In this document: positions 1 through 13,142 of the stretch, piece after piece | Layout of the letters: each line of letters opens with the position of its first letter | How positions within the stretch are numbered: position 1 is the first letter of the stretch | From: Clostridiales bacterium | GTDB taxonomy: Bacteria; Bacillota; Dehalobacteriia; UBA4068 | NCBI GenBank assembly: GCA_009783415.1 | Contig: WRHF01000081.1 | Coordinates: 1 to 13,180 of the forward strand | Direction: 5' to 3' | DNA length: 13,180 bases | Position numbers and translations under genes: made by a program | Notes under the pieces: model-generated | The model's database searches: none | The model's input: only the letters and a program-made list of their open reading frames with translations | What the model was told of the DNA's origin: nothing

Positions 1-877
1 CGATTGTAGCCTGGATATTGGTGGGGTAGGCTGCCTGATTATTAGGATGCATTGTTTTCCATGAAAATCCGTGATCATACTCTGTTTGCCGTTCAAAAGA
101 GGCAAATTGGAGCATGCAGCGCTCCAGGGCATTGCGTTCTTTCGATATTTCCAGAATAACCGGCTCGGCGCCCATTGTTTCCCGAAAAAGGGCGGTCAAG
201 TCATTACTTAGACTAAAATGATTTTCCGATTTCGCAACCAAAGTCATCCGGGCCAAGTTTAAGGTGATTCGCTCCAGCTTGTTTCGGTTTTTGCGAAAGG
301 CGGCGCATTGGAGGCGGAATTTGTTATCCCGCGGGGAATAGCAAAGCTTATAAGGATGATACTGGCGTTTGCTCCGGCTGCCCTTCGGACTGTCATATTC
401 AATGATCAATGGGCTTTGCTCTTTGATTGCTTGTAAAATAGTCTTAAACCGGGATCCATAACCGGCATCCTCATAATCATCCCCGTCCAAATGGCGGTCA
501 TAAATGTGAAAATCATCGCTATTAAACAGAGGCGGGGTATCCGCAAGGGATTCCTCTAATTCGGCATATGATTCTTGATCCAGAAACAACTTGAGCCGCG
601 AATCATTAAGCAAGGATCTTAACCATGACCTTTCCAGGCCGGATAAAGGTCTTTTTATTTCCCCTGATATTTTGGAGTAGTACAAGTCGCCTCTCATTTC
701 TAAAAAACTCCATTCGCCGGAAAACAATGCCGGCAGTAAATGAAAGGTGCTGTCGTAAAAGCCATTGTCTCTGACTAATTCTTCGATCTTGGCTTTGGTC
801 AGGCCATTTTTCGCTTGCTCTAAAATCCGGGCAATCACGGTGAAATAACAACCGTAGACTTCCGAAAACAGTTCCAT
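1..877 (-). CDS. WYL-domain protein, paralog 2. The start is at 877-875 and the gene runs off the window start, so at least 292 aa are present and the C-terminus is missing.
   Basis: I translated the minus-strand frame by hand from ATG 877-875 down to position 1 and found no stop: MELFSEVYGCYFTVIARILEQAKNGLTKAKIEELVRDNGF...QYHPYKLCYSPRDNKFRLQCAAFRKNRNKLERITLNLARM... The segment PYKL..NKFRL..AAFRKNR..ERITL aligns with the WYL core of the upstream paralog (PLKI..GRRYV..YSFRKRR..FRLDYI). The start ATG overlaps the upstream gene's TGA stop as TGATG. An SD-like GGCGGTGA lies 6 nt upstream. The ORF track missed this gene because there is no in-window stop. The track's 93-aa ORF 606..887 is an out-of-frame artifact of it. 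Confidence 0.6.
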   Translation of the reverse strand, partial: MELFSEVYGCYFTVIARILEQAKNGLTKAKIEELVRDNGFYDSTFHLLPALFSGEWSFLEMRGDLYYSKISGEIKRPLSGLERSWLRSLLNDSRLKLFLDQESYAELEESLADTPPLFNSDDFHIYDRHLDGDDYEDAGYGSRFKTILQAIKEQSPLIIEYDSPKGSRSKRQYHPYKLCYSPRDNKFRLQCAAFRKNRNKLERITLNLARMTLVAKSENHFSLSNDLTALFRETMGAEPVILEISKERNALERCMLQFASFERQTEYDHGFSWKTMHPNNQAAYPTNIQATI

Positions 878-2118
878 CAAGAATCACCGCCTTCTCTTGC
901 GGCAGCTATGCCATACATATGTGCCATGCGGTTAATATCGCTGAAAAATCGTTTAACTACCGCTTCGTTTGTGCCTTCCAAACCAATAATACGGCCGGTA
1001 AAGGTTTTGATCCACGGTACTATATCAGTAGAATCGAACATCTCTTTGGTATATAAAAATGTATTGTCATCAAGTCGCTTCAGCTCGCCGCCCTGGCCCT
1101 CGCGCTTGATCCGGTCAATGATATATTGTTCATGCCGCTCATCAATACAAAGCTTCATGCTGATAGTTTCCAAGCGGTGGATACCGCCAAAAGAAACGCC
1201 CCAGACCTTGTCCAGATTGTTGTTAAGTCTTTCTTTCAATTCAGCTGCAAAATCGACCTCTTTATCGACCTTGACCGACTTGATGTAATCCAGGCGAAAG
1301 GTATTAAAGCGCCGCTTACGAAATGAATACATGCAAACATACCGCCGCCCGGTCCCGGCGCTGACAAATATTTTTAGGGGAAGGGCATGAACGATAATGC
1401 TATTGCTGCTGCGGATGCTTTGATTGGCAAAAAATACCGAACGGTTTTGCCGGATGGCCGAGAGCAAATCAAAAAGAATCCCGTCCTCTAATGTATGGGC
1501 GATGTAGTAATGCTTGAAGGCGAACAAATCGTTATCTTGATTTTCACTATCCAGAATATAGCTGCCGATTTCCCCAAAGGGCGCTGCGCCTTGAAAAAAC
1601 TTGACCGCGTCAATCAGTTTCGGCGTCAAGGGGATATTCTGCGGATTTATACTGTAAACAAAGGCCCTGCCCTGCTTTTCTTGCCTGAGCATCCCCAACT
1701 TAACATACTCTTTGCACTTATTCCTGACGGTCTGGGCATCAAAGATCATTTCACTTTTATCGCAAATAAAATCGGTGAGCTCGTCCACAGTCATAGGCGC
1801 GGCTTGGAGGGCGTCCAGAATACAAAAGTGCAGCACTATATCGTTTGCAGTGAAGCTTTTGGATTTCCAGGCGGCATAAAGAGGATTGAGCGGGATATGG
1901 GCGCAGTCAACGGAAATAAAAGATGATTTGTTGCCGCTTTTGTAATCCCATTTCATATATTCACCCAGATAACTTTCACAGCGGCGCTTTTCATTATCAT
2001 AAGTACGGGACGACTTTTTGGTGAAATCGGCGCGCGATTTAAAACCATATACATAAAAATCACGCATATAGTCCCGGATTTTATCGAAATTTTTTATTAG
2101 TTCAGAAAAATCGGACAT
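877..2118 (-). CDS. WYL-domain protein, paralog 1 (about 413 aa), a putative ligand- or RNA-sensing transcriptional regulator transcribed divergently from rtcB.
   Basis: The track ORF is 877..2208 but starts on TTG. The first ATG (2118-2116, MSDFSELIKNF...) has a weak SD-like AGGCAAGG upstream. The C-terminal half contains a WYL-like core, PLKIFVSAGTGRRYVCMYSFRKRRFNTFRLDYIKSVKV, which matches the WYL pattern (..GRWYL..ay....R.FRldRI). The C-terminal tail resembles a WCX extension (VPWIKTFTGRIIGLEG). Confidence 0.7.
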   Translation of the reverse strand: MSDFSELIKNFDKIRDYMRDFYVYGFKSRADFTKKSSRTYDNEKRRCESYLGEYMKWDYKSGNKSSFISVDCAHIPLNPLYAAWKSKSFTANDIVLHFCILDALQAAPMTVDELTDFICDKSEMIFDAQTVRNKCKEYVKLGMLRQEKQGRAFVYSINPQNIPLTPKLIDAVKFFQGAAPFGEIGSYILDSENQDNDLFAFKHYYIAHTLEDGILFDLLSAIRQNRSVFFANQSIRSSNSIIVHALPLKIFVSAGTGRRYVCMYSFRKRRFNTFRLDYIKSVKVDKEVDFAAELKERLNNNLDKVWGVSFGGIHRLETISMKLCIDERHEQYIIDRIKREGQGGELKRLDDNTFLYTKEMFDSTDIVPWIKTFTGRIIGLEGTNEAVVKRFFSDINRMAHMYGIAAAREGGDS

Positions 2119-2278
2119 AACCTTGCCTAAATCAAATTCATAGGTACTTGTACAATGTGAAATATAACACAAATTCGACAAATTTGCAAGAAAATCTATG
2201 ATTCGCAAACTTTTTTAAATGATAATGAAAGCCATTCTTGGTAAACTAATCAGAGAAAAGCACAAGGGGTTGATAATT
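2119..2278. promoter_or_regulatory. Divergent intergenic control region between the WYL-protein gene and rtcB.
   Basis: This is a 160-bp AT-rich spacer between divergent start codons. It contains the palindromes GTACTTGTAC (2144-2153) and CAAATTTG (2179-2186), and an imperfect inverted repeat CTTGTACA..TTTGCAAG. The rtcB SD AAGGGG lies at 2264-2269. Confidence 0.35.
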
Positions 2279-3511
2279 ATGTTTGTATTGCACAACGAAA
2301 ATAACAAGGCGCCGATTAAAATGTGGCTGCCGGATCAAACTTATGCCGATGAGCTGTGCCTGGAACAGGCGCTGAATCTTGCCAACCTCCCATTTATATA
2401 TAAATGGGTCTGTTTAATGCCGGATACACATGCAGGGATGGGAATGCCGATCGGCGGAGTTATAGCGACTACAGATGTGATAATCCCCAATGCGGTGGGT
2501 GTTGACATCGGTTGCGGTATGGCTTTTGTAGGAACCGATATCAGGCTTGAGGAAATCCGCGGGATCATGACCGGCAACGGGTCAATTATTCAGGGAATGA
2601 TCGGCGATATTCTGCGCAATATCCCGGTGGGCTTTAATCATCATAAAAAAATCCAAAGCTGTACCACCTTGGACGATGCCCTGGAATCAATGAATAAGTA
2701 TGAAGCCAATCCCGAGCTTTGCGAGCAAATCGAAGCGGGCTATTATCAGGTAGGAACGCTTGGCGGAGGAAACCATTTTATTGAACTGCAAGAGGATGAT
2801 GAGGGTTATCTGGGCATCATGGTCCATTCCGGCAGCCGCAACTTCGGCAAACAGGTCTGTGATTATTTTCACAATACCGCCCGTGAACTCAACCGCAAAT
2901 GGTATTCCGAAGTACCCCAGGAATGGAGACTGGCTTTCTTGCCGGTGGACAGCAAAGAGGGAAAGCAATATATCAATTGGATGAATCTGGCCCTGGACTT
3001 CGCCGCTGAAAACCGGACCAAAATGATGCTAGCCGTATCTGCGATCGTTGAAAAGTGGATCAATAAACATACAGATATCAGATTCAGCTACACCGCTGAA
3101 ATCAATTGCCATCATAATTATGCCGCTCTTGAAAATCATTATCGCAAAAATGTCTGGGTGCACCGCAAAGGCGCTACCCGGGCAAGAGCAGGAGAGCTTG
3201 CAGTAATCCCCGGCGCCATGGGTTCATACAGCTATGTAGTGGAAGGTCTGGGCAACGAAATAAGCTTTTGCTCATCTTCCCACGGAGCCGGTCGCAGCTA
3301 CTCCCGTAAGGGTGCAATGGAAAAATTTACCACACAGGAAGTCATGCTTGACCTGCAAAAGCAAGGTGTAGTTCTTGGTAAGCATAACAAAGACGATGTA
3401 GCCGAGGAAAGCCGCTTCGCCTATAAAAATATAGACGAGGTCATGGAAAATCAAAAAGACCTCGTAAAACCAATTAAGAGGCTCAAAACCCTGGGGGTAG
3501 TTAAGGGGTAG
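2279..3511 (+). CDS. rtcB: RNA 3'-phosphate / 5'-OH ligase RtcB.
   Basis: The protein shows NKAPIKMW...PFIYKWVCLMPDTHAGMGMPIGGV, GGGNHFIEL, CHHNYAA and SHGAGR, which are the canonical RtcB metal-site and active-site motifs. It aligns with E. coli RtcB from TENAPVKMW onward. I chose ATG 2279 (MFVLHNENNKAPIKMW) because it has the SD AAGGGG 9 nt upstream and gives 410 aa, against 408 aa for E. coli. The track's 2219 start adds 20 unsupported residues. Confidence 0.92.
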   Translation: MFVLHNENNKAPIKMWLPDQTYADELCLEQALNLANLPFIYKWVCLMPDTHAGMGMPIGGVIATTDVIIPNAVGVDIGCGMAFVGTDIRLEEIRGIMTGNGSIIQGMIGDILRNIPVGFNHHKKIQSCTTLDDALESMNKYEANPELCEQIEAGYYQVGTLGGGNHFIELQEDDEGYLGIMVHSGSRNFGKQVCDYFHNTARELNRKWYSEVPQEWRLAFLPVDSKEGKQYINWMNLALDFAAENRTKMMLAVSAIVEKWINKHTDIRFSYTAEINCHHNYAALENHYRKNVWVHRKGATRARAGELAVIPGAMGSYSYVVEGLGNEISFCSSSHGAGRSYSRKGAMEKFTTQEVMLDLQKQGVVLGKHNKDDVAEESRFAYKNIDEVMENQKDLVKPIKRLKTLGVVKG

Positions 3512-9369: not shown

Positions 9370-9420
9370 TATTATTCTCCTTTATACTATCAAAGCCAGT
9401 AGAGGCTATGTCTAGAAATA

Positions 9421-9477
9421 ATGATTGCTTTCGGAACACTTATTATTTTGATCCTGAAATTCAGGACAAAAAAATAA
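9421..9477 (+). pseudogene. Truncated remnant of the small peptide gene (MIAFGTLIILILKFRTKK).
   Basis: It is in-frame and homologous to residues 10-27 of the 7580 ORF, with an internal ATG only. It has no SD or promoter, and an in-frame TAG lies 7 codons upstream. It is probably non-functional. Confidence 0.4.
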
Positions 9478-9514
9478 CCCGCCCTTTGTCTAGGTTTTCG
9501 GGTTATTCTTTATA
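9473..9514. terminator. Intrinsic terminator. It is strongest on the minus strand and probably terminates the aroQ-fusion transcript.
   Basis: The same 9-bp stem as at 7659-7694. On the minus strand it is followed by TTTTTTTGTCC (7 U). On the plus strand the U-run is weaker (CTTTAT). Confidence 0.5.
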
Positions 9515-9552
9515 ACACCGGTAAGCCTACCGCCTTTAAAGCGGTTGTGCCC

Positions 9553-9585
9553 GAGGGGACGTGCGTAGCGTCCTCTCTTTTTATT
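9553..9585 (+). terminator. Intrinsic terminator, repeat copy B.
   Basis: A 9-bp stem with a 7-nt loop, followed by TTTTTATT. Confidence 0.5.
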
Positions 9586-9692
9586 ACAATATCATTTTAG
9601 CATAGCTACAATGTATTGTCAATAATTTAACTTGTTTCGTTATATTGTTAGAAAATTTACCCATCTATCGGGAGCCCATAAGTTTTATCCGT

Positions 9693-10415
9693 TTATACTA
9701 CTAACAAAGCCCGTAAGGCCAGGATATAGCTTTGGATGCCCAAACCATAAATAGACCCCCGGCATACTGCTGCCAGTACTGAGTGGTGGCGGAATTCTTC
9801 CCTGGTGTGGATATTGGAAAGATGTACCTCTATCACGGGGGTGGTTACGGCGGCGATGGCATCGCGGATGGCCAGGCTGTAATGGGTATAGGCCCCGGCA
9901 TTTAAAATAATTCCGGCATAAGCGCTGCTATCTTGGATCCAGCTAACTATTTTACCTTCACAATTGCTTTGATGGCAGGTTACGGTTGCCCCCAGTTCTG
10001 TTCCCAGCTCCGAAAGGGTTTGATTGATTTGATCTAAAGTGGCGGAGCCATAATGCTCCGGTTCCCGGTCTCCCAATAAATTCAGATTTGGGCCATGAAT
10101 AACTAGAATTTGCTTCATTGGATTATCACTCCCCTCAAGATTTTGCAGCAACTTGGCCTGATACGAGCGGGAAATTCCCATCAGCCCCTGCATAAAGCTG
10201 GTAGCTTCCCCGGTCAATTCCGGCCCAGCCAAAGCGGCAGCTTGCTCAATAACCTCCCGCTCCCGAACAGGGTCGGTCAAGGCCAAGCCGCTATCTCTCT
10301 TAAGCTGTGCCACACCCCGGACAAACTCCATCCGCCGGGTAAAAAGCTCCAAAAGCCGGCTGTCGATTTCATCTATTTGAGAGCGCATGGAGGATATTTG
10401 ACCTTGGTAATTCAT
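9693..10415 (-). CDS. aroQ: Bifunctional fusion of an AroQ-class chorismate mutase (residues 1-99) and a type II 3-dehydroquinate dehydratase (residues 100-240).
   Basis: The N-terminus SQIDEIDSRLLELFTRRMEFVRGVAQLKRDSGLALTDPVREREVIE is an AroQ chorismate mutase helix bundle. The C-terminus shows ILVIHGPNLNLLGDREPEHYG, HQSNCEGKIV, NAGAYTHYSLAIRDA and IEVHLSNIHTREEFRHHS, which are type II DHQase signatures. SD AAGGAG lies 7 nt upstream of ATG 10415. An internal strong SD GAGGGGAG lies 8 nt upstream of M100 (10118-10116). An out-of-frame TGATAA is present at the junction. Confidence 0.85.
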   Translation of the reverse strand: MNYQGQISSMRSQIDEIDSRLLELFTRRMEFVRGVAQLKRDSGLALTDPVREREVIEQAAALAGPELTGEATSFMQGLMGISRSYQAKLLQNLEGSDNPMKQILVIHGPNLNLLGDREPEHYGSATLDQINQTLSELGTELGATVTCHQSNCEGKIVSWIQDSSAYAGIILNAGAYTHYSLAIRDAIAAVTTPVIEVHLSNIHTREEFRHHSVLAAVCRGSIYGLGIQSYILALRALLVV

Positions 10416-10498
10416 AGCTTATCTCCTTGTAGAGTAATGCATAACTCCTACTCCCTACCCCAGATAAACTGGAAAAGAATTCAAAAACAAATTAGACA

Positions 10499-10534
10499 CG
10501 GATCTACGCGGATTAAAAACGGATTAGCACGGAT
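10499..10534. repeat. Four helically phased direct repeats of CGGAT(T) in the aroF-aroQ spacer.
   Basis: aCGGATc, gCGGATt, aCGGATt and aCGGATt start at 10499, 10509, 10520 and 10530, giving spacings of 10, 11 and 10 bp. They are followed by T8. They sit in a 218-bp intergenic gap between two co-directional biosynthetic genes, and no T-box consensus is present. Confidence 0.5.
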
Positions 10535-10633
10535 TTTTTTTATTATTTCATGCATCATTTTGAATCTACATCCTTGCAGGTCAATCAAGAGATGAGGTAT
10601 ATTTTGTGGCTTTTTTTGTTCGAATTTGAGAGC

Positions 10634-11647
10634 TTAGTTCCTAGTCCCTTCAAGTGCTTCTCTCAATTTACGGATATTATAAACAAGCCGGTCAAACTGA
10701 TCAGCAGAAACAGACTGGCCTCCATCGCAGAGGGCTTGTTCCGGATGATTATGTACTTCTATCATCAAGCCATCGGCTCCTGCCGCTACTGCTGCCAAAG
10801 ACATGGGTTCTACCAAATTTCTCTGGCCTGTGCCATGAGAAGGATCTACTATTACCGGCAAATGAGATTTCTCTTTTATAACCGGTACCGCCGAAAGATC
10901 CAAAGTGTTGCGGGTAGCGGTCTCAAAAGTGCGGATGCCCCGCTCGCAGAGGATGACCGGGGCGCCTCCTATCAGCACATATTCCGCTGCCATCAGCAGT
11001 TCGTCAATGGTAGAGGCAGGCCCCCGCTTCAGTAAGACCGGCTTATCCAGCCGGCCTACCTCCTTTAGAAGGGGGTAGTTCTGCATATTTCTGGCTCCGA
11101 TTTGAATGATATCGACATGTTTATCGAAATCGTCTAAATATTCAGCCGATATTATTTCAGTAACTACAGGCAAGCCGGTTATTTCCCTGGCTATTTTCAG
11201 CAAATTCAAGCCTGCTTGGCCCAAGCCCTGGAAAGCATAAGGAGAGCTGCGGGGTTTGAAAGCTCCTCCCCGCAAGAAATTAGCGCCCAGGGACTTTACT
11301 TCCCGGGCAATGCTCAGCATTTGCTCTTCGCTTTCCACCGAGCAGGGCCCGGCTATTATTGCAAAATGCCCGCCGCCGATTTTTTGTCCCCCGCATTCTA
11401 TCACGGTATCGCCGGGATGAAAATCCCGTCCAGCCAGCTTATAAGGCTGAGATACCGGCATTACCCGCTCAATAAAGGGGTAGCGCAATAAAAGATCAGG
11501 GCAAAGGGCAAAGGTATCGCCTAAAAGGCCAAGCAGATGGGTATCCGCTCCCTGAATCTCTTTGACTATCAAGCCTTTGGCGGTCATCATGTTCTTGATG
11601 AGGTCTATTTGAGCGGTTTGGGCATCCGGCCTAAAAACAATGATCAT
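10634..11647 (-). CDS. 3-deoxy-D-arabino-heptulosonate-7-phosphate (DAHP) synthase, type I-beta, with an N-terminal ferredoxin-like regulatory domain; 337 aa.
   Basis: The protein aligns along its whole length with Thermotoga maritima DAHPS (MIVVLKPG...PYKLVSREFHP.DTVI...GYFTIIAGPCSVE...LRGGAYKPRTSPYSFQGLG...IIQIGARN.QN...KPVLLKRG...ILCERGIRTFE.ATRNTLD.SAVP...SHLP..VDPSH). I chose the start MIIVFRPDAQ at ATG 11647-11645, with SD GGAGGAAG upstream. The track's longer 385-aa ORF overlaps the upstream gene. Confidence 0.9.
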   Translation of the reverse strand: MIIVFRPDAQTAQIDLIKNMMTAKGLIVKEIQGADTHLLGLLGDTFALCPDLLLRYPFIERVMPVSQPYKLAGRDFHPGDTVIECGGQKIGGGHFAIIAGPCSVESEEQMLSIAREVKSLGANFLRGGAFKPRSSPYAFQGLGQAGLNLLKIAREITGLPVVTEIISAEYLDDFDKHVDIIQIGARNMQNYPLLKEVGRLDKPVLLKRGPASTIDELLMAAEYVLIGGAPVILCERGIRTFETATRNTLDLSAVPVIKEKSHLPVIVDPSHGTGQRNLVEPMSLAAVAAGADGLMIEVHNHPEQALCDGGQSVSADQFDRLVYNIRKLREALEGTRN

Positions 11648-11660
11648 TCTGCTTCCTCCA

Positions 11661-13142
11661 TTAGCCATTAGCCTGGGCTTTAATTTCTGCAACCTTTTTT
11701 GCCCCCAAAAAGTATTCGGCCACCTCAAGAAAAATCCGGGAAAAACCGTGCTTTTGGTATTCCTTTTTATAGCCTTTAAGAAAATTAGCATCGACTTTCA
11801 GGCTTTCCAGGGTGGCATAAACAAAGTCTTGGACCAGCGGTTCCGGAAATTGATAACCTTCCAGCCCTCTAAGATAGGCCAAATGCTCCAGGCTATCCTG
11901 GTGGGGGTAGGCGAGCAGGCCATAAGGGGAAAATTGGGCGCCGGCAGCTATTGCTCCGGCAAAAGAATCCTCATAGCCGCAGGCCCCGCTCCCGAAAGGG
12001 GAATTATTGATATGCTCATAGCCGGTAATTCCTGATAAAAGATTTTCAAAATCCTGATCTTTTTGGGGATTTTTTTGCGGCACATAATCTGCTATGCCAT
12101 AAATCACTTGCCCCGCCTGATGAAAGGAAATCAAGCTTTGGGCTTTTTCCTCGCCGACATAATAATAGATCCATTTGATCAAGGCTCTTGTTTCCAGGGC
12201 CTGGCCCAAATACTCTCCTTTGTAGAGATTTTCCTTGAGCAATGTTTTGCCATGATCCCAAAAGCCGGTTTCCGGGCCGATATTGTTACGGTTCAAATCT
12301 ATGCCGCTGGCGCTGCCTTTGAGGCCGCCCTTTTTTTGTTCCTTGGGCTTATTGATAACTATTTCCCGGCCATCAGGATTCAGGGAAGGGATCAAGACTA
12401 TTTTAATCTGATTTAGTAATTCCCGGCAATAGGGGTCTTGTTGAGCCTTTTCCAGAATCTCATAAGCCATTTGGATCAAGGCCGCCGTACCAAACTGCTC
12501 TTTGGCATGAACATTGCCAATATAAAGCATAATTTTTCCCCGGCCGTTGCCTATGGTCAGGCTATAAATATTTCTCCCCCCGCCTGTTTTGCCGATCACA
12601 AAAAGCCGGGCCAGCCGGTAGCGGCTGAGATCTTTGATGTATTCTTCCAATTTTTGATAAGTGTAAGTGGTATTCAGATTATATTTTTTAAATTTTTTCG
12701 GCAGGGCATTATCTTTAGGAATTATTTCCTGCCAAACTGTGCTTATCGCTTTATTGAATACTGCGGCATTCATGCCGGCAATTGTCATTTCACCATTAAC
12801 GCCCAGCTCTTTTAATCTGGCATTAGCTTCGGCAAGGCTATAGGTGGGAAAAGATACCTGAAGTTCTCTGCCAAAATAAAGCAAATTGACAGTATATACC
12901 AGATCCGGCCAGGGTGTGCCGGGATAATTATTGTGATATTCTAAATATTCATTTAAATTAGCTTCTTTGTATTCCGGCTCTTTATATAGTTCAGTTAAAT
13001 CCATACTGTGATCCGGGTAGTTTTCATCTGAATCATTTGTGCTTGACAGAGCGGTTTTATCTCCCGGGATATTAAGAAAAATCCCGCTTGAAATCAATAT
13101 GATTCCGGCAATCAGAGTCAAAAGTCTGGCCTTTTTTTTCAT
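11661..13142 (-). CDS. Secreted M14-family zinc carboxypeptidase, resembling gamma-D-glutamyl-diamino-acid peptidases; 493 aa.
   Basis: An N-terminal signal or anchor, MKKKARLLTLIAGIILISSGIFL, is followed by the zinc site HAKE, then NPDG, DLNRN (substrate Arg) and SFHQAG (third zinc ligand His). These are the hallmark M14 motifs in the correct order. SD AGAGGAG lies upstream of ATG 13142. The stop lies 13 nt before the DAHPS start. Confidence 0.85.
   Translation of the reverse strand: MKKKARLLTLIAGIILISSGIFLNIPGDKTALSSTNDSDENYPDHSMDLTELYKEPEYKEANLNEYLEYHNNYPGTPWPDLVYTVNLLYFGRELQVSFPTYSLAEANARLKELGVNGEMTIAGMNAAVFNKAISTVWQEIIPKDNALPKKFKKYNLNTTYTYQKLEEYIKDLSRYRLARLFVIGKTGGGRNIYSLTIGNGRGKIMLYIGNVHAKEQFGTAALIQMAYEILEKAQQDPYCRELLNQIKIVLIPSLNPDGREIVINKPKEQKKGGLKGSASGIDLNRNNIGPETGFWDHGKTLLKENLYKGEYLGQALETRALIKWIYYYVGEEKAQSLISFHQAGQVIYGIADYVPQKNPQKDQDFENLLSGITGYEHINNSPFGSGACGYEDSFAGAIAAGAQFSPYGLLAYPHQDSLEHLAYLRGLEGYQFPEPLVQDFVYATLESLKVDANFLKGYKKEYQKHGFSRIFLEVAEYFLGAKKVAEIKAQANG

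Follow-up and report, generated by a model that had tools for sequence, protein, structure and literature searches.

A chorismate mutase-type II dehydroquinase fusion gene whose junction probably preserves the start of a formerly separate gene

The stretch of DNA analysed here (the window) comprises 13,180 nucleotides of contig WRHF01000081.1 from the Clostridiales bacterium assembly GCA_009783415.1. At 9693..10415 its minus strand holds a single open reading frame (ORF) with an ATG start, 240 codons and a TAA stop, in which a chorismate mutase (CM) is joined to a type II 3-dehydroquinate dehydratase (DHQ). This fusion gene lies next to a gene for DAHP synthase (DAHPS), in a shikimate-pathway cluster. 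The parts of the gene, its own Shine-Dalgarno (SD) sequence and the signals at the junction between the two domains are listed below, with model confidence given as the predicted local distance difference test (pLDDT).

9693..10415, minus strand: complete CM-DHQ fusion ORF (ORF reading, Pfam, NCBIfam; an identical 240-aa protein, P0273, lies on another assembly)
10137..10415, minus strand: AroQ-class CM domain, residues 1-93 (Pfam CM_2, AlphaFold2, residue conservation)
10119..10136, minus strand: linker codons 94-99 (E-G-S-D-N-P), predicted coil (DSSP, pLDDT)
9696..10118, minus strand: type II DHQ domain, residues 100-240 (Pfam, TIGR01088, PDB relatives)
10423..10428, minus strand: SD AAGGAG of the gene's own start at 10415 (duplex energy -8.3 kcal/mol)
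10129..10136, minus strand: SD-like GAGGGGAG, 10 nt 5′ of the Met100 ATG (duplex energy)
10123..10128, minus strand: TGA-TAA in the +2 frame, a possible relic stop pair that is statistically unremarkable (sequence, codon resampling)
10116..10118, minus strand: ATG of Met100, at which stand-alone DHQases and NCBI's 141-aa product begin (alignment)

An earlier reading of this DNA from its letters alone (the sequence-only reading) had described a complete AroQ CM reading straight into a complete type II DHQ at Met100, and the ORF, Pfam and NCBIfam all confirmed this. The Pfam family CM_2 (PF01817) matched residues 10-86 (E 2e-18; 66.8 bits against a cut-off of 27) and DHquinase_II (PF01220) matched residues 102-237 (E 5e-59; 198.4 bits). 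In NCBIfam, TIGR01088 (aroQ) covered residues 102-238 with a score of 198.9 against its equivalog cut-off of 169.85. The best NCBIfam model for the window CM was TIGR01805 (Gram-positive-type CM), with a score of 57.6 that falls below its equivalog cut-off of 71.2; the same model was the best match for every CM domain that we tested, namely the window CM, members of both fusion clades described below, the free CM of relative L028 and two pheA proteins. The PDB relatives of the DHQ domain extended down to E values of about 1e-40. Like stand-alone type II DHQ (PDB 2uyg, 1gqo, 1h05), residues 100-240 are full-length, score above the TIGR01088 cut-off and retain the catalytic residues; unlike those enzymes, the fusion has a 99-residue N-terminal extension that encodes a second enzyme.

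The AlphaFold2 model of the fusion protein had a mean pLDDT of 91.8. It places three long helices in the CM domain (residues 3-42, 49-63 and 68-93; pLDDT about 89-97), a coil at residues 94-100 according to DSSP, with the chain minimum of pLDDT (63) in the block 91-100, and then a flavodoxin-like alpha/beta domain whose first strand spans residues 101-107. With Arg11′, Arg28, Lys39, Arg51, Glu52, Ser84 and Gln88 of Escherichia coli CM taken as equivalents, the active-site set is present in the window CM as R11, R28, K39, R51, E52, S82 and Q86. Across 20 fusion proteins R11, R28, K39, R51 and Q86 were invariant, and E52 and S82 were conserved in at least 90%. For the second domain we assumed the catalytic list N12, R19, Y24, N75, H81, D88, E99, H101, R108 and R112 of Mycobacterium tuberculosis DHQ; the corresponding N110, R117, Y122, N172, H178, D185, E196, H198, R205 and R209 were invariant in the same 20 proteins. 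As judged from its sequence, then, the ORF is a genuine bifunctional gene with both activities predicted intact, and it belongs fully to both enzyme families.

On the minus strand the junction reads CTTGAGGGGAGTGATAATCCAATG, with the codons CTT GAG GGG AGT GAT AAT CCA ATG. We scored the duplex energy with the 3′ tail of 16S rRNA upstream of every ATG on both strands of the window (441 sites). The SD of Met100, whose pairing extends past GAGGGGAG into TGAT to about 6 nt from the ATG, reached -15.1 kcal/mol and ranked fifth (top 1.1%). It is stronger than the SD of the gene's own start, and among the gene starts of the window only that of the radical-SAM gene is stronger (-15.8 kcal/mol), in line with the earlier claim that this SD is as strong as any in the window. 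The same claim had put the SD 8 nt before Met100; the SD is there, and its spacer is 10 nt. Compared with 112 real stand-alone DHQ starts gathered from related loci (median -9.25 kcal/mol, a value close to that of the fusion gene's own SD), the Met100 SD beats 98%, and 1.8% reach -15.1 kcal/mol. When the peptide QNLEGSDNP was held fixed and codons were drawn from the window's usage, 3.4% of resamplings gave -15.1 kcal/mol or lower, with a median of -9.6 kcal/mol. GAGGGGAG is unusual, though part of its strength is owed to the amino acids that it encodes. The local RNA around the SD had no significant structure (z = +0.63), and by computation Met100 thus combines what internal initiation requires: an SD suitably spaced from a start codon, in accessible mRNA.

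The TGATAA carries less weight. It does lie in the +2 frame, as had been pointed out, but its reading as a fossil boundary signal did not hold up: out-of-frame tandem stops occur three times in the ORF, where 2.4 are expected, and such a pair arose in 19% of codon resamplings with the peptide fixed. By itself TGATAA is no more than chance.

The position of the junction was more informative. In alignments Met100 falls on Met1 of P0007 and of other stand-alone DHQases, and the closest stand-alone DHQ gene, that of locus L086, begins with ATGAAGCAAATT, 12 nt that are identical to window codons 100-103, preceded by TAG-GAGGTGG. Because the L086 start is identical, Met100 would be the ancestral DHQ start and the region before it the former ribosome-binding region. 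The alignment with stand-alone Met1 and the 12 nt shared with L086 bear out the proposal that the junction is a former gene boundary, and the comparison of orthologous loci that had been suggested as a check found the genes separate elsewhere. In L028, a metagenome-assembled genome of Oscillospiraceae, genes for shikimate kinase (SK), shikimate dehydrogenase (SDH) and the enzymes considered here are arranged SK.SDH - DAHPS - CM (91 aa) - DHQ (141 aa), and the stop of CM and the start of DHQ share bases in TGATG. L086 has the order SK.SDH - DAHPS - pheA (CM-PDT-ACT) - DHQ and L088 the order SDH - DAHPS - pheA - DHQ, while in L089, L009 and L078 pheA is directly upstream of DHQ. In the window and in L005, DAHPS is followed by CM-DHQ; in L003, L004, L090 and L091 the gene before CM-DHQ is SK or SDH. 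CM and DHQ are seldom adjacent: they were so in 4 of 80 genome loci and 1 of 80 metagenome loci examined. In the genome scan of 80 DHQ loci an adjacent free CM was found only in L028, and pheA was nearby in L009, L078 and L030.

Taken with the junction signals, these comparisons lead us to consider it likely that the bifunctional gene arose from neighbouring CM and DHQ genes, with Met100 and GAGGGGAG(TGAT) as the old DHQ start and its ribosome-binding site. A CM-encoding gene would have stood immediately upstream of DHQ and been translationally coupled to it. This upstream gene would then have lost its stop codon relative to the DHQ frame, such that the old ribosome-binding site and start of DHQ are now read as Glu-Gly-Ser...Met. 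The last step may have been a small lesion that changed the frame within GGGGAG, where a single nucleotide was deleted or a larger deletion had its end-point; these 6 nt would be the only place for it because a second TGA lies 9 nt upstream in the same frame as TGATAA. Restoring GGAG to GGAGG yields ...NLEGR-TGA-TAA together with a canonical extended SD, GGAGGTGAT, and restoring G4 to G5 yields ...NLEGE-TGA-TAA. One restored base in GGGGAG therefore does put TGA TAA in frame, which makes the fusion by a 1-nt indel proposed in the sequence-only reading a precise and internally consistent possibility.

The fusion is not confined to the window. A word-index protein search with the CM domain alone gave no matches, and the further fusions were found with a 4-sequence profile. 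Profile searches recovered six further lineages of the window type (P0004, P0294, P0005, P0293, P0006 and P0296) at 46-52% identity, and an older, distinct fusion clade, marked by "INPAAYTHTS", in which clustering at 50% identity gave at least 14 clusters. The window fusion is one of several CM-DHQ fusions in gut-type Clostridia, an architecture that is widespread and little noticed. A metagenome scan with the window protein (NAGAYTHY pattern) returned one known fusion (L093, which is P0293) and no close relative among the matches listed. No paper describing a CM-type II DHQ fusion came up in full-text literature searches, and the PDB held no chain with both CM and DHQ domains; as far as these searches reach, the structure and biochemistry of a CM fused to a dodecameric type II DHQ are undescribed.

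We built neighbour-joining bootstrap trees of the CM and DHQ domains, which resolved only P0005 with P0293 (92%), P0004 with P0294 (100%) and the older clade (99%), four members of which were placed in the DHQ tree. In two well-supported fused sister pairs, the ratio of nonsynonymous to synonymous substitution rates (dN/dS) was 0.20 and 0.34 for CM and 0.09 and 0.18 for DHQ, while the linkers were only 20-27% identical within the pairs. The CM part is under purifying selection in these other fused lineages. Neither the length nor the sequence of the linker is conserved among fusions (KGEETEP, QGEAPEE, KGEDTG and, in the window, EGSDNP), save for a Gly that is invariant in these four. The pattern is that of a working, selectable protein whose linker appears to drift freely, almost neutrally.

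Other multidomain arrangements turned up in the same searches. P0163, a member of the older clade on an ENA contig, is a 631-aa four-domain protein, CM-DHQ-shikimate dehydrogenase-shikimate kinase (CM-DHQ-SDH-SK). DHQ-DHQ tandems, about 300-317 aa long, are also fairly common (P0002, P0003, P0010, P0121-P0125 and P0295), for example in a 22-member Rectinema cluster; the second copy in P0010 has lost the catalytic motifs.

Several observations weigh against the derivation of the window gene from separate CM and DHQ neighbours. We found no close unfused relative of the window lineage: identity to the next DHQ is no more than about 65%, and both the ancestral state and the mutation are therefore reconstructed rather than observed. 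Nucleotide alignments of the 45 nt upstream of Met100 with unfused boundaries or with pheA linkers were not significant. Glu-Gly codons are purine-rich and intrinsically SD-like, so that redrawing the codons of the linker peptide gave -10 kcal/mol or lower in 40% of trials. Finally, the domain trees do not settle whether the fusions had a single origin or several, and an independent origin of the window fusion is argued only from its DHQ being closer to stand-alone DHQs (62-66% identity) than to the DHQs of other fusions (55-61%).

The alternative that survives best concerns the route alone and is compatible with an origin from neighbouring genes. It is possible, if somewhat doubtful, that the PDT-ACT domains of an upstream pheA were deleted, leaving its CM, part of the interdomain linker and the DHQ ribosome-binding site joined to DHQ. 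The slot immediately upstream of DHQ is occupied by pheA in five syntenic relatives (L086, L088, L089, L009 and L078), among them the one with the closest stand-alone DHQ, and DAHPS precedes pheA in L086 and L088, whereas a free CM fills the slot at one locus only (L028). The CM domains of pheA and of the fusions share an NCBIfam subtype, and pheA interdomain linkers (RKRLFPGEETLL, QRLMLPGQPRE) resemble those of the fusions, although the resemblance covers just 3-4 residues. In L086 the last pheA codons encode NLE, after which come TAG and GGAGG; in the same register the window has NLE-GGG-GAG. Set against this, nucleotide alignments to pheA 3′ ends were not significant (P 0.3-0.9), the CM tree does not place fusion CMs inside the pheA CMs, and L028 shows that a free-CM intermediate is possible. 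One match to the L088 linker, of 13 of 15 nt, is probably coincidental, because it and the protein alignment are not collinear. The indel and pheA routes are not exclusive, because a free CM like that of L028 could itself derive from pheA.

A second alternative asks what the junction signals do now. Rather than being remnants, the internal SD and ATG might be kept by selection, the gene yielding both a 240-aa CM-DHQ and a 141-aa DHQ, for instance to tune the CM:DHQ ratio in a mixed dodecamer; we think this unlikely, though only a little more so than the pheA route. The SD surpasses 98% of real DHQ starts as well as the gene's own SD, and the site is unstructured. In-frame internal starts that give functional isoforms are documented in E. 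coli (bioRxiv 10.1101/520783). Like the internal initiation sites mapped there by Ribo-RET, the window site combines a strong SD with an in-frame ATG at a domain boundary and could yield a C-terminal isoform; unlike them, it is known from sequence alone, is not conserved among orthologous fusions and may be a relic.

Conservation of the site was uneven. The junction Met is kept in five of seven window-type lineages, having been lost in P0293 (KKPK) and P0296 (QKEK), and it is absent from all 14 older-clade proteins. Junction SD energies were -15.1 kcal/mol in the window, -12.0 in L004, -9.4 in L003, -1.3 in L005 and -1.8 in L091, such that three of the seven window-type lineages retain an SD that equals or exceeds the median strength of real DHQ starts. 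That L004 and L003 keep both SD and ATG while linkers drift fast speaks for selection; that L005 and L091 keep the Met without an SD, that two lineages lost the Met and that the older clade never has it speak against it, and a recent fusion explains the same data without selection. Other junctions also have out-of-frame stops, a TAA ahead of the SD in L004 and TAATG in L005; these could be relics, but they are expected by chance as well.

Since other fusions have lost the SD or the Met, boundary signals appear to decay after fusion, and the Met100 SD is a credible relic of the DHQ start. The linkers of other fused lineages drift almost neutrally and have lost SD or Met, from which we infer that the window fusion is comparatively young or that its internal start is still used. 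Youth is consistent with the window DHQ being nearer to stand-alone than to fused DHQs. The seam of the window gene appears intact, with a start codon and a ribosome-binding site of top strength, and together with the unfused relatives and the older, decayed fusions it forms a natural series in which one can study how operon neighbours become one protein and at what pace boundary signals erode.

It is less probable still that the fusion is ancient and stable and that there was no former boundary at the junction, GAGGGGAG being a by-product of Glu-Gly codons and TGATAA of Ser-Asp-Asn codons. Fusions do exist at 46-52% identity and in an old clade, Gly/Glu-rich linkers recur, and both the resampling median of -9.6 kcal/mol and the tandem stop in 19% of resamplings show that such signals can come with the peptide. 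Yet the observed SD is in the top 3.4% even given the peptide, Met100 and the codons that follow coincide exactly with a stand-alone DHQ gene start, the other fusions are not nearest to the window DHQ, and the SD has been lost from the linkers of established fusions. The sequence-only reading had held that in-frame fusion in all orthologues, with a conserved linker and no TGATAA, would mark a stable ancient fusion. Half of that picture was found: orthologues at 46-52% identity are fused in frame and lack TGATAA, but they share no conserved linker, and there are unfused relatives as well.

Two further alternatives deny the fusion altogether. That the real gene is the 141-aa DHQ alone, with the upstream 99 codons a decaying CM remnant, is very unlikely. 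In its favour are the strong internal SD and the NCBI (PGAP) annotation, which calls only the 141-aa DHQ from Met100 on two assemblies of the lineage (MCL1873751.1 and MDR2711705.1); the former (P0271, 141 aa), on a 13,180-nt contig like the window, matches window residues 100-240. On other assemblies JGI, ENA and Logan call the 240-aa product. The CM part has its own SD and ATG, its three-helix AroQ fold is confidently predicted, its catalytic residues are all intact, and CM dN/dS is 0.2-0.34 in other fused lineages. Moreover, the 240-aa ORF recurs in at least four independent assemblies: L001 (a 35-kb ENA contig), L002 (a Logan assembly of SRR5248970), P0272 (JGI, an 11.6-kb contig) and P0273 (a 13.2-kb contig). 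These carry three alleles without a single amino-acid change in the CM part, and all four agree in every CM and linker residue. None of the marks of a frameshift or pseudogene (an assembly-private lesion, disrupted residues or relaxed constraint) was found. The NCBI annotation leaves the organism's chorismate mutase unannotated, and pathway reconstructions of these uncultured Clostridia would wrongly score the Phe/Tyr branch-point enzyme as missing.

The frameshift sequencing error that had been raised as a possibility is ruled out by the intact ORF in these assemblies and alleles: although the critical base sits in a short G run, it is scarcely credible that a sequencing or assembly error merged two genes when different samples and pipelines give the same CM and linker residues, when the junction nucleotides, read in the two relatives L001 and L002, are identical to the window despite 21 nt differences in the gene, when G4 is not an error-prone homopolymer in short-read data, and when six other lineages have in-frame fusions.

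The window gene, from its domain content, joins the known AroQ CM fusions of the aromatic pathway. Like the P-protein (PheA), it begins with an AroQ CM whose best NCBIfam match is TIGR01805, and a short linker then leads to another enzyme of the aromatic pathway; in relatives pheA fills the slot of the window CM upstream of DHQ (after DAHPS in L086 and L088). Unlike the P-protein, its fusion partner is type II DHQ, which acts at step 3, rather than the enzyme after CM, and it is without an ACT domain. The CM-linked DAH7P synthases (N-terminal CM in Bacillus and Geobacillus, C-terminal CM in Porphyromonas and Prevotella) likewise combine an AroQ CM with an early, non-adjacent shikimate enzyme; here the partner is DHQ instead, and the neighbouring DAH7PS of the window already has an FXD regulatory domain.

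Substrate channelling is unlikely, because DHQ (step 3) and CM (step 8) are not consecutive on the way to Phe and Tyr. Co-expression and co-regulation are the simplest benefits of the fusion. Type II DHQ, which we take to be a dodecamer, has several PDB relatives of the window domain that hold 12 chains or a multiple of 12. In the 12-subunit, tetrahedral DHQ there are six two-fold-related subunit pairs, and by general considerations these could carry six CM dimers; the fusion protein would probably assemble as a DHQ dodecamer with CM dimers. An allosteric role for the CM domain is conceivable by analogy with PniDAH7PS, in which prephenate on the CM domain allosterically inhibits the partner enzyme (PMC8408635). 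A more elaborate scheme, which we regard as quite improbable, is that the internal ribosome-binding site is functional, that CM-DHQ and free DHQ form mixed dodecamers in which CM dimers on the two-fold axes let chorismate or prephenate control step 3, and that this arrangement evolved repeatedly in Clostridia via capture of the pheA CM module. If true, it would be a feedback device analogous to the CM-linked DAH7P synthases, acting on another enzyme.

Upstream of the fusion gene, the following features were annotated.

10416..10643, minus strand: leader/promoter region of the fusion gene (97.7% identical in L001 up to 10643)
10584..10557, minus strand: sigma-70-like site in the leader (promoter scan)
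10491-10532: 21-nt tandem direct repeat, ATTAGACACGGATCTACGCGG / ATTAAAAACGGATTAGCACGG, in the leader (repeat search)
10634..11791, minus strand: DAHPS gene with FXD regulatory domain (Pfam DAHP_synth_1, DAHP_snth_FXD)

The leader repeat contains four ACGGAT-like cores and may be an operator; it has no Rfam match. An Rfam scan of the whole window at gathering thresholds gave no match, hence no known riboswitch or leader. The longest DAHPS ORF overlaps the upstream M14 carboxypeptidase ORF (11661-13142) by 131 nt; the ATG at 11647 (SD -9.3 kcal/mol), which gives a 338-aa protein matching relatives, is the likelier DAHPS start.

The surroundings of the gene differ between strains. Synteny between the window and L001, a 98%-identical strain, ends at about 10643, at the DAHPS stop, where L001 has a spore-germination permease gene and no DAHPS; the fusion gene and its 228-nt leader are common to near-identical strains, and the upstream neighbour differs. 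On the other side, L001 carries at 10810-12553 a Septu pair (PtuA, E 8e-85; PtuB, E 1e-44) between the fusion gene and a DUF503 gene. At this position the window has 323 nt of unrelated non-coding DNA (9370-9692), which contains a near-consensus sigma-70-like promoter at 9622..9594 on the minus strand and a terminator at 9553-9577 on the plus strand. Further along the window lie SPFH/Band 7, HtpG (Hsp90), radical-SAM and DUF503 genes, and at 877-3511 a WYL-domain gene on the minus strand is divergent from an RtcB RNA ligase gene on the plus strand.

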